Numbered from the stretch's first letter, positions 48,301 through 64,000 are shown. The stretch is 64,000 nucleotides of DNA from Eledone cirrhosa (GCA_964016885.1 OZ024743.1:21204001-21268000); one strand, 5' to 3'. Translations and numbers: made by a program. The notes: generated by a model not told the origin, from the sequence alone.

Positions 48301-51300
48301 CCCTTTATGGTCAGAGTTCAACGCAGAGGTTAACTTTGCATTTCATCCTCACGGGGTCGATAAAATAAAGCACCAGTAATACACTGGGATAATTGCTGGC
48401 CTTGTGCCAAAAGTAGAAACAATTATAAGGACCAATTCATCCTTGTGTCTGATAGTATTCACGAAAGCATGACCCAGTTTCGATTTTCACATTCAAACTA
48501 TAATTTGATGAATACGAACAACTTGACGAAACAATTTACATAAAAAATAATTTTGTGATATAATAGAGTAATATACATACCGGCATTTAGCGCGAGAGAG
48601 GGAGCATAGAGTACAATGGCCATATAGAGCAGCTTTGATGGCAAAAACAAAATAAAAAATGAAATAAGAAAGGGATTTAGTGATACATGTCATTAAATGT
48701 CAATTCTAATTCTAAGAAGAAATAAAAGATCATCCTAGCAAGCAGTAATAATTATTTTTTCTTTAACCCATATTTATTCAATGAAATGGTTACACGCCAA
48801 AACTTATGCTGTATACTTAGAATGAAAATTGATACATGGATGAACACACACACACACACCACACTATAGTAGGAATATATACATATGCAGACGTATGCAC
48901 ATGTATAGCATAAATGTCATCTTTCGTAGAGTTTCATTAAGCACGAAAACTAATTATTTTACTCTATACTTTTCATAGTACATGCAATAAAGTGTTTAGG
49001 ATCAATTGATACGCGCTTTGTTTAAATAAAAAAACTAACTCCCTAATTTCTTATTCAATACAGTCAACATTTAGCAAAAATATACTCGTGTCGATCAAAT
49101 GTTTGTTCGTAAGGTAGCCTCACTAATACATTGAGCTAGAAACTGAACCTCTACATATGAACTTGACCAACTCAAACCCATTTGTGTTCTTAAATTGAAA
49201 CAACACATTGTAGCAGCCATATCTCACTTTCGCTGTCGTTTTTAAAACTTGTGCGACATTTTAAAATGGAGACTTATATATTAGACTTGGGTTACTGATA
49301 TGATCAAGGCAATTTTGCGGAGTCAAAATCGTACTAAAGAATGGCAATAAATAATTTCTTAAGCTATTACGAGTGTCCCTTTATAATAACATGTTATAAA
49401 CTGCATAAGACTGCGGCAAAATACGGAATTTAATATAGAATAATATGCGGTATGAAATTGAATTTTACTGGATAAAATTAATTTATTCTCTTATTCTATA
49501 TAATGATTGGAAATCAAGAATTATACCGAATATTAGAGAAGAAAGCTATATTCATATAGTTGATATTAAAGCTGTGTGATATATTAAAATTAATTGCCTG
49601 ATCTTCAAACTTCAGGTAAGTTTAATCTTATTTATACACGGTGGATAACGAAATCATATTCACTATTTCTTTTCGGATTGAGAAGAAAAGCTGCAAAGTT
49701 ACATTCAATCTTAACGAGCCTCAAATAAACTTTCTACTTCTCATTTATCTTCATTTACACAATCAATGAATGAACATTAGGCAAATTATTTGGATACAAT
49801 ATTTAAAGGAATTCGGTAGTTAAGAACATTGTACAGAAATAATCTATCGCCTGGTTTAACAAAGTCACTTGGCATATAGTTGCATTTTGCAAAGTCTAAT
49901 CTGTTGCGAGCGTTTCAGCCATTATATCGTGATGCGTTGCTTGCTACAACATTACACTGAGTTGCAGATTCTTCACCACTTTCCTCTTTCCCTCAAAAAT
50001 ATCTTGGAAACTTTGCAGTATACCAATGGCGAAACAAGACAAACACACACATACATGCACACACGCGCACGCACACACACACACACACACACACACACAC
50101 ACACACACACACACACACACACACACACACACAAACACACACACACACACACACACACACACACACACACACACACACACACACACACACACACACACAC
50201 ACACATATATATTGAAAAGGCTTGCTGAACACACAAACCCAACCCAAACCACTTGGCGTCGCGGTCGTGATTTTACAATATATATATAATGGAAGTTTAG
50301 TAAAATCGAAGCTTCGGCTGTAGCCAAGCCAACGAAACACAATCAGGAATTATGCAGCCAAGCAATCGACGAGGAAGCTCAGAGTAATAACTGTTTCTAC
50401 TTTTGGTACAAGGACACCAATTATCCCAGTGCATTACTTGTACTTTATTTTATCGACCCCGTAAGGATGAAAGGCAAAGTTAACCTCGGCGGGATTTGAA
50501 CTCAGACCGTAAAGGGACGTAACTATGCTGGAAAGCATGGCGTCCGACCCTCTACCGATACTGCCAATCCACCATAACATTCCTTAGACGGCATGGTGTG
50601 TGTGTGTGTGTGTGTGTGTGTGTGTGTGTGTGTGTGTGTGTGTGTGTGTGTGTGTGTGTGTGTGTGTATCCCGGGTTCAATCGGAGTTAACCACAGTAAG
50701 TACCGCCGTGTTTCGTTCGAAGGAAATCATCAGGTTTTCCTGATGATTTCCTTCGAATGAAACAGTTCTAGTCTTGTAGAAGACATTTCTATATTAAACA
50801 TTATATATATATATATATATATATATATTACTGCTTTTATTCGATTGACTGTGGGTTATACATCCATCTGGAAGCATCACTTTTTCTTAATTTTAGTGGC
50901 GTGCATCACAGTACAAGTTTTGTGGTTATTATGTCTGATGTTATTCCTCTGTGTGTGTCTTTTGTTGTGTTTGTCCACAGTGGGAGAGATAATGTTTCAA
51001 GGAAGGTGTAGTAAAGTTTCGGTGATGTTCTATAAAAGCTTGTCAATTGGGAAGAGATTTATCATGTAATTGCATGAGGTTTGAAGTTTAATGTGGTAAC
51101 TTGTGCTACTCGCATATACATGGGAGGTATCTTATATTTTTTTTATTGTGTTAGTTGTCTGTATGCGGGGTCTGTGTACAGCCTATTAATGATGCTTATT
51201 TTATTTTTAGTTTATTATGATTAGCTGCGAAGAGATTAGGGCCCAAATAAGAGGATCAAATCTAGTATTTATGATTAAGAATGTTTCTTTATAATGTTTT

Positions 51301-63527: not shown

Positions 63528-64000
63528 AAGAAAAAGAGATGAAATTGAAAATGCAACTGGAGTCTTATTTTTTTATAAAATATATATATTTATTTGGTTC
63601 CTTTACCGGTTTCGCAGTTCTTCTGCTTTTCAAAAGGTGAGTTGAGATGGAGGGTCTGTGGTTTTTCTCACATCTGGTTGGTCTCTGAATGTTACTTGTT
63701 TTATATGGAAAAAGTGGCTCGAAATGCCAGGTTTTTCGAGAAGTAATTTGATTGGTTTGTCAATAATTATAATAAATTTCGCGCCAGTTCGCGTTACAAT
63801 AGTTCTTCAAATAAGAGAGGGGGTTGTCACAGGTTGTTTTTTCATATATGAGTGTTTGAATTTCTTTTTACTTGAAAAAAGGAGGCTCACCTTTTGAAAA
63901 GCAGAAGAACTGCGAAACCGGTAAAGGAGCCAAATAAATATATATATTTTATAAAAAAATAAGACTCCAGTTGCATTTTCGATTTCATCTCTCTTTCTTT
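63528..64000. mobile_element. Palindromic twin-hammerhead element, U3-A8 variant (63600-63637 - and 63890-63927 +)
   Basis: cctt-TTGAAAA-gcag aagaa ctgc-GAAACCGGTA^aagg on both arms of about 115 bp. Confidence 0.75.

Follow-up and report, generated by a model that had tools for sequence, protein, structure and literature searches.

Head-to-head hairpins of Penelope-like elements in Eledone cirrhosa are often centred on a predicted transcription start

Penelope-like elements (PLEs) are the closest relatives of telomerase reverse transcriptase (RT). In the available sections of two studies, an inverted, 5'-truncated pLTR with a tail on one side only is described as their footprint, and the inverted pLTRs of EN+ PLEs are explained by self-priming on an antisense template (PMC8557442, PMC3846280). 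The hairpins analysed here share with that footprint the head-to-head 5'-truncated copies, the palindromic junction and the one-sided tail; they differ from it, as far as the cited sections go, in that their short arms often reach further 5' and their centres cluster at a predicted transcription start. For an Anolis PLE, PAc (Poseidon of Anolis), the portion of the report cited here places the tail between two internal RT starts, with both strands of the target cleaved and extended, and identifies uncleaved RNA as the main substrate (PMC11167929). The adjacent starts at the tail and the extension of both strands are its likeness to our hairpins; the PAc account concerns RT starts, unlike ours, which concerns cDNA ends and template classes. 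Metazoan non-LTR retrozymes, according to the accessible parts of their descriptions (bioRxiv 10.64898/2026.07.22.740005; PMC7229834), are similarly non-coding, PLE-derived and endowed with type-I hammerheads, but they form head-to-tail arrays that release circles, whereas our hairpins are head-to-head and their cores are predicted to be sequestered. The origin of the tandem and inverted structures of PLEs and the role of the hammerhead are stated as open questions in the available text of three sources (PMC8557442, PMC3846280, PMC11167929).

We analysed a stretch of 64,000 nt of Eledone cirrhosa DNA, hereafter the window, in which an initial annotation had proposed five hammerhead-bearing foldbacks. 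All five were recovered by masked self-comparison at about the coordinates proposed, with arm identities of 88-97% (50709-50764, 55190-55311, 57674-58039, 62176-62534, and arms 63530-63641/63886-63997). They belong to four families, where at least three had been counted: A, with two copies, B1, B2 and C. Every foldback has a tail on one side only, which the initial annotation overlooked. In the first family-A copy, the tail-bearing arm (50667-50733, minus strand) abuts (TG)n, has an internal deletion and retains only half a hammerhead core, and the short arm (50734-50799, plus) carries a complete type-I hammerhead, with the core at 50740 and a predicted cut at 50778/50779, followed by (TA)n. 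The second copy is flanked by (TA)n on both sides; its short arm (55187-55247, minus) spans pLTR positions +7 to +67, with a hammerhead core without stem I, and its long arm (55248-55383, plus) spans predicted +1 to +136, including a 70-nt tail, and has a mutated stem III. The B1 element consists of a short arm (57674-57855, minus; about predicted +1 to +177; core 57782, predicted cut 57733/57732) and a long arm (57856-58136, plus; core 57929, predicted cut 57980/57981) with a tail of about 100 nt. In the B2 element, the long arm with its tail (62075-62356, minus; core 62279, predicted cut 62231/62230) begins at about predicted +3 and the short arm (62357-62529, plus; core 62431, predicted cut 62479/62480) at about +8. 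These four hairpins are centred on the predicted start. The exception is element C, whose short arm (63524-63890, minus; core 63633, predicted cut 63604/63603) continues to about 215 nt upstream of predicted +1, a reach that constitutes the 245-nt loop of the foldback. This arm keeps a TATAAAA box (63699-63705, minus) 30 nt upstream of the predicted +1 at 63675, which lies in an initiator-like CCAGA. The long arm of C (63886-64000, plus; core 63894, predicted cut 63923/63924) starts at +35, and its tail, which extends some 67 nt outside the window, stops at a TA tract.

Several other structures lie in the window. A 522-nt, 94%-perfect palindrome without a hammerhead core, not listed in the initial annotation, occupies 61448-61968 between TA/CA tracts. 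Further foldbacks without a full core are found at 57006-57116, 57152-57507, 36273-36453, 58415-58495, 48042-48170, 52709-52960 and 12571-12645, the one at 58415-58495 resembling a very short B2-type stub with a tail. A near-identical short repeat with only a CTGATGA half core is present in two copies (62540-62650 and 63290-63410). Apart from the five elements, the minus strand contains two lone hammerhead motifs: a U3-A8 variant with a palindromic stem III at 58766-58804 and a B-type motif at 36511-36560. ORFs at 14340-15377, 17909-20272 and 26372-29077 each encode a LINE-type RT with a PHD finger at the C-terminus. The elements had also been assigned to a host intron, a claim for which the window gave no support: among 29 scanned ORFs (92 of at least 90 aa were listed, short exons falling outside the scan), no host-gene domain exceeded the Pfam cut-off, and the domains found were LINE-type RT, endonuclease and PHD only.

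Hammerheads had been attributed to both arms of each foldback. In a motif scan, the type-I core and stems I-III were present on both arms of 57674 (B1), 62181 (B2) and 63528 (C) only, and the cut positions 57980/57981, 62479/62480 and 63923/63924 proposed for these elements hold as motif positions. The attribution fails for the two family-A foldbacks. In 50710 the plus arm is complete, whereas the minus arm has neither stem III nor the cleavage triplet; in 55188 the plus arm has a broken stem III and AUA for GUA, and stem I is broken in the minus arm. Full hammerheads are therefore found in 7 of the 10 arms, the three incomplete ones all being family-A arms. Contigs from other sequencing runs carry the intact letters at two positions mutated in the 55188 copy, and the common family-A haplotypes possess stems I-III. 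The core of element C is a U3-A8 variant, which we take to be a known form of the hammerhead, with a palindromic stem III. Stems of this kind are described, in the section cited, as needing dimers (PMC4209133). An Rfam scan of the window returned no hammerhead at E<=1 and only chance miRNA matches on repeats.

Folding predictions put the entire core in duplex within whole hairpins of both strands and gave the active fold a low probability in isolated arms, except for stems I-II of C. The initial annotation had named these loci as potential sources of self-cleaved or circular RNA; such products are therefore unlikely, since the ribozymes of a whole hairpin are predicted to be locked. The exception would be transcription initiated within element C, whose minus arm keeps its own predicted promoter. 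Read-through of the hairpins could plausibly yield double-stranded RNA. Identity with non-LTR retrozymes was considered and rejected, as it needs head-to-tail tandem units and the five elements are head-to-head pairs.

The derivation of the hairpins from Penelope-like pLTRs placed head to head, without an ORF, at TA microsatellites was borne out. For families A and C, the outer ends of the stubs lead into ORFs encoding a PLE-type RT and a GIY-YIG domain, the Pfam GIY-YIG score being 27.3 bits for C (cut-off 22.6) and 16.4 bits for A. Three of the 70 sampled family-A copies run past the tail into the ORF, and 93 exact pLTR-ORF junctions of this family are present in the genome. At one locus, L061, a 3' UTR filled with microsatellite follows an intact 712-aa Hydra-type ORF, and behind it another pLTR ends at the short end. 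The protein motifs of this ORF (RWR 37, DKT 115, CNCLNKEAC 565, CDLC 665, CMH 693) match the definition of the Hydra clade, as do (TA)n insertion and the canonical hammerhead. In the accessible description of Hydra-clade PLEs (PMC8557442), the features shared with family A are RWR (for RWK), DKT and a CxCX5C linker, a C-terminal GIY-YIG-like region with CxxC and CxH, a pLTR hammerhead and (TA)n targeting; family A differs in its tail of about 70 nt, against 30-40, and in the dominance of stubs in its copy number. Judged on the visible sequence, it is not the Hydra-1_Obim family (PMC8557442 supplement). Unlike these PLEs, its unit reaches about 6 kb because of the 3' UTR of about 3 kb. This 3' UTR is a (TA)/(TG) mosaic (L061:2640-5780, reverse strand), so part of the mixed microsatellite of the genome may spread inside Penelope copies. 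The window itself contains (34003-36070, minus) a Hydra-type ORF from a further family, degenerate and nearly full-length, with 37-42% identity to the family-A protein; inverted copies of its own upstream region flank it near 33124-33400 and 36070-36280.

Family C runs into an ORF of Neptune type (RT and GIY-YIG), preceded by an overlapping ORF of 410 aa. Its translations contain GxKF, DKG, a CX2-5CxxC linker and CCHH in the GIY-YIG domain, all Neptune-clade motifs. On such motifs, A would be placed in the Hydra clade and C in the Neptune clade. Three of four long family-C loci contain the two overlapping ORFs, departing from the single ORF that defines the Neptune clade. At one family-C locus (L289:788-4254), the first ORF and the RT ORF overlap in the -1 frame near 1948-1960; the overlap contains T TTT TTA, with a weak hairpin after it. 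Six T are present there in 19 of the 22 locus reads, a number that counts duplicates, and seven in the other three. T TTT TTA is, we presume, a slippery motif, and the overlap is a candidate for a programmed -1 frameshift. Canonical PLEs have one ORF according to the accessible text on the Neptune clade (PMC8557442), unlike family C, whose additional upstream ORF overlaps with the RT ORF, in the majority of copies, at conserved T TTT TTA. Our literature search found no specific report of an ORF1/RT frameshift of this type. For B1, 0 of 25 tail matches continued into an ORF; the architecture of B1 and B2 matches that of A and C. These hairpins are new families of a known kind, A and C belonging to the EN+ PLEs, and the class itself is known.

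Exact patterns detected 9,692 family-A tails, 13,737 family-C hammerheads, and 854 B1 and 365 B2 matches in the 3.0-Gb genome. The reversed-pattern controls were all zero, the counts are lower bounds, and those of C, B1 and B2 are numbers of arms. Copies were then sampled in order of position, mostly from one contig: the first 70 loci of A, the first 50 each of C and B1, and the first 30 of B2, representing 42, 46 and 25 distinct insertions for C, B1 and B2. Hairpins accounted for 41/70 (A), 22/42 (C), 24/46 (B1) and 13/25 (B2) of them. As had been proposed, outer ends are shared: one short and one long fixed end, the long one bearing the tail, delimit 39/41 (A), 18/22 (C) and 20/24 (B1) hairpins. 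Centres vary, with 37 distinct positions in 41 hairpins for A, 22 in 22 for C and 24 in 24 for B1. Genome-wide, 4,840 family-A hairpins have their centre no more than 24 nt from the core, and the first 50 comprise 30 different loops by hand count. Outer ends lie within 22 nt of (TA)4 in 102/111 (A), 55/64 (C) and 56/70 (B1) cases, against 138/1680 background segments. The adjacency to (TA)n/(CA)n announced by the initial annotation therefore holds genome-wide but not at one B2 end in the window, where a short TATA is followed by another repeat. The (TA)n flanks on both sides would mask any target-site duplication.

Arms of the same copy resemble each other more than arms of different copies (0.986 vs 0.956, 0.967 vs 0.949 and 0.957 vs 0.911 in three families). 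No nested three-arm copy was found in 100 family-A loci; three-segment loci, considered as nested products, turned out to be neighbouring separate insertions. All common family-A stub haplotypes are present among the ORF-linked copies. Given the varying centres, the lack of nested copies in these loci and the shared haplotypes, each hairpin is best read as a separate insertion product.

The 5' ends of the arms pile up. A single 14-nt bin, from -3 to +10, collects 58/111 arms in A (three ORF-linked copies included), 31/64 in C, 26/70 in B1 and 13/38 in B2, against 0-8 in adjacent bins, the end positions being blurred by microhomology. The pile-up does not track the ribozyme, since it lies 6, 42, 68 and 80 nt upstream of the core in the four families. 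Ends within 3 nt of the ribozyme cut are found in 5/111 (A), 1/64 (C) and 1/70 (B1) arms. Among 35 distinct places listed for family-A ends near the cut, with a pattern that favours short matches, one abuts TA exactly at the cut and several diverge no more than 4 nt away; a minor cluster near the cut is thus conceivable in this family. In three families, A, C and B1, the pile-up coincides with an initiator-like YCA that has a TATA box at -30 to -32, the +1 of these families being a motif prediction placed after the pile-up was seen. This pairing is rare, occurring at 1/628 (A), 2/834 (C) and 2/650 (B1) reference positions, one of which is the pile-up in each case. B2 served as the prospective family and passed in part: its pile-up is on an initiator-like YCA, and CATAAC is present at -31, with no TATAWAW at -30. 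Upstream of the B2 start (L301, L310, L313), the octamer ATTTGCAT occurs about 46-52 nt before the cluster, in place of a canonical TATA. B2 also has a second cluster, with 6/38 arms ending at +67 to +80, near the ribozyme. Single arms that abut the flank also end at the pile-up (18 cases). About half of all arms end outside it, and in 26/111 A and 20/64 C arms the sequence continues beyond +1 on the upstream side, for the most part far enough to pass the TATA box. The upstream-TATA layout is not general among PLEs, as the D. virilis Penelope promoter is described, in the part cited, as internal and TATA-less (PMC2377424). A putative TATA and initiator are mentioned for the Adineta pLTR in the available text (PMC3846280), and a pLTR promoter as such is already known. 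A search of the literature (titles and abstracts, with few subscription papers) retrieved no report of PLE stubs stopping at a transcription start, of twin priming in PLEs, or of a difference between stubs and long copies.

Do long copies stop at the same site? The ORF-linked sets comprised 22 of 30 family-A loci with more than 900 nt of body (seven had short bodies and one was unmapped) and 19 copies of 22 distinct family-C loci, all selected by their 5' junction, with full length verified for a minority. Among the family-A copies that reach the start site, 0/18 stop in the bin: two end at -6/-7, and the other 16 continue far upstream. For C, 0/15 stop. By contrast, 58/84 (A) and 31/51 (C) of the position-ordered arms that reach the site stop there (Fisher p, 2e-8 for A, or 4e-6 counting the -6/-7 pair, and 1e-5 for C). 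A pause built into the sequence should stop stubs and long copies alike; as only the stubs stop, different templates are the simplest reading. These data suggest that the RNA templates used by the enzyme are of two kinds. On the simplest reading, stubs would be copied from RNA with its beginning at the site and long copies would derive from RNA that does not begin there, through tandem read-through, a hammerhead-made circle, or strand transfer to the 3' repeat, all three of which fit the data. In retroviruses, minus-strand strong-stop DNA is a short cDNA made off the RNA 5' end. We tentatively propose, as a possibility rather than an expectation, that the stubs are integrated strong-stop cDNAs, begun inside capped linear RNA not far from its 5' end and running off the cap from both sides of the cut, and that long copies come from a second template class, hammerhead-made circles or tandem RNA, which has no 5' end at this site.

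We conclude that the five hairpins are probably separate short PLE insertions, in which twin-primed cDNAs ran off the RNA 5' end at the predicted start. The enzyme would prime two cDNAs, one from each side of a cut in (TA)n. Both would run off the 5' end of the element RNA at the predicted transcription start, so that the pile-up may mark this 5' end and the hairpin is centred on it; the two outer ends may correspond to the pair of internal sites at which the RT of another PLE starts in vitro. The two cDNAs could then be joined by microhomology, as in L1 twin priming, where two cDNAs are joined in this way. L1 twin priming and retroviral strong-stop are analogies of mechanism only, as the enzymes and the priming differ from the PLE case. 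Copies extending past +1 would come from tandem, circular or strand-transferred templates, and most hairpins may be dead ends, with their ribozymes locked in duplex. In 8/39 (A), 3/18 (C) and 10/20 (B1) hairpins, the 5' reach of the short arm exceeds that of the long one by more than 8 nt, indicating that the short arm is not always a fold-back copy of the long arm and ruling out fold-back copying as the only mechanism. These further-reaching short arms, together with the likeness of arms within copies, fit two cDNAs primed on the same kind of RNA.

The clustering of centres might instead reflect a structural pause or a microhomology hot spot in otherwise ordinary PLE insertion products, rather than an RNA 5' end. 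Short palindromes or overlaps are indeed frequent at the junctions, published PLE junctions include palindromic ones (PMC3846280, in the section available), and the family-A cluster coincides with hammerhead stem I; yet in three families the cluster is 42-80 nt from the ribozyme, in three it lies 30 nt behind a TATA box, the 18 single arms abutting the flank end there too, and ORF-linked copies run through it unstopped. We consider this explanation unlikely. Alternatively, short transcripts from 3' pLTR or fragment promoters could be moved in trans, in a SINE-like manner, and a TATA provided by flanking (TA)n might let stubs propagate. The ratio of stubs to ORF-linked junctions, about 100 to 1 (9,692 vs 93 exact matches, obtained with different patterns), would agree with this, as would the A and C arms that continue upstream of +1, mostly past the TATA box, and the TATAWAW supplied by flanking TA at -33 to -22 in 5/18 single arms starting at +1; mobilisation of pLTRs alone in trans is also published, in the accessible parts of PMC3846280 and PMC8557442. 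However, the common stub haplotypes are all found in ORF-linked copies, and the Anolis element RNA needs sequence beyond the tail to insert, according to the portion cited (PMC11167929), a sequence that solo 3' ends do not have. Such mobilisation is quite improbable as the source of the hairpins.

The initial annotation had favoured a MITE-like class; read strictly, this would mean palindromic twin-hammerhead elements of fixed form, each replicated as an entire hairpin. At first sight, the most similar family-A copies look the part: the best 40 matches to 55190-55382, at 97-100% identity, repeat its layout, and among 30 of them most have one centre in common. Outer ends are shared as well. Such copies look identical because they were chosen by similarity to the query, and the fixed-element reading was abandoned after position-ordered sampling, in which centres vary, unit length is not fixed, the ends are asymmetric instead of terminal inverted repeats, and the 100 loci contain no nested three-arm product. 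The folded hairpin, moreover, has fully paired cores. The MITE-like reading is largely refuted, and we regard it as very improbable. The initial annotation had itself named random inversion points or artefacts as evidence against its proposal; centres are, on the contrary, strongly clustered, and varied joints recur in independent contigs. Palindromes beside microsatellites are difficult to assemble, but assembly artefacts or local fold-back accidents are barely conceivable here: the arms differ by 3-12%, thousands of copies share two precise outer ends, and the family, with many different joints, also appears in contigs of two further runs sequenced for a single study, in which no listed piece covers a whole element.

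The hairpins themselves are an ordinary PLE footprint, and it is the stop at the start site that goes further. Present in stubs, absent from long copies and seen in two clades, this stop is a testable clue to PLE replication. If true, the reading of stubs as strong-stop products and of two templates would explain together the partial tandems, the pLTRs, the tails and the role of the hammerhead, and genomic stubs would map PLE promoters without RNA data. Finally, thousands of near-perfect hairpins of 120-500 nt per genome could feed double-stranded RNA pathways or A-to-I editing.
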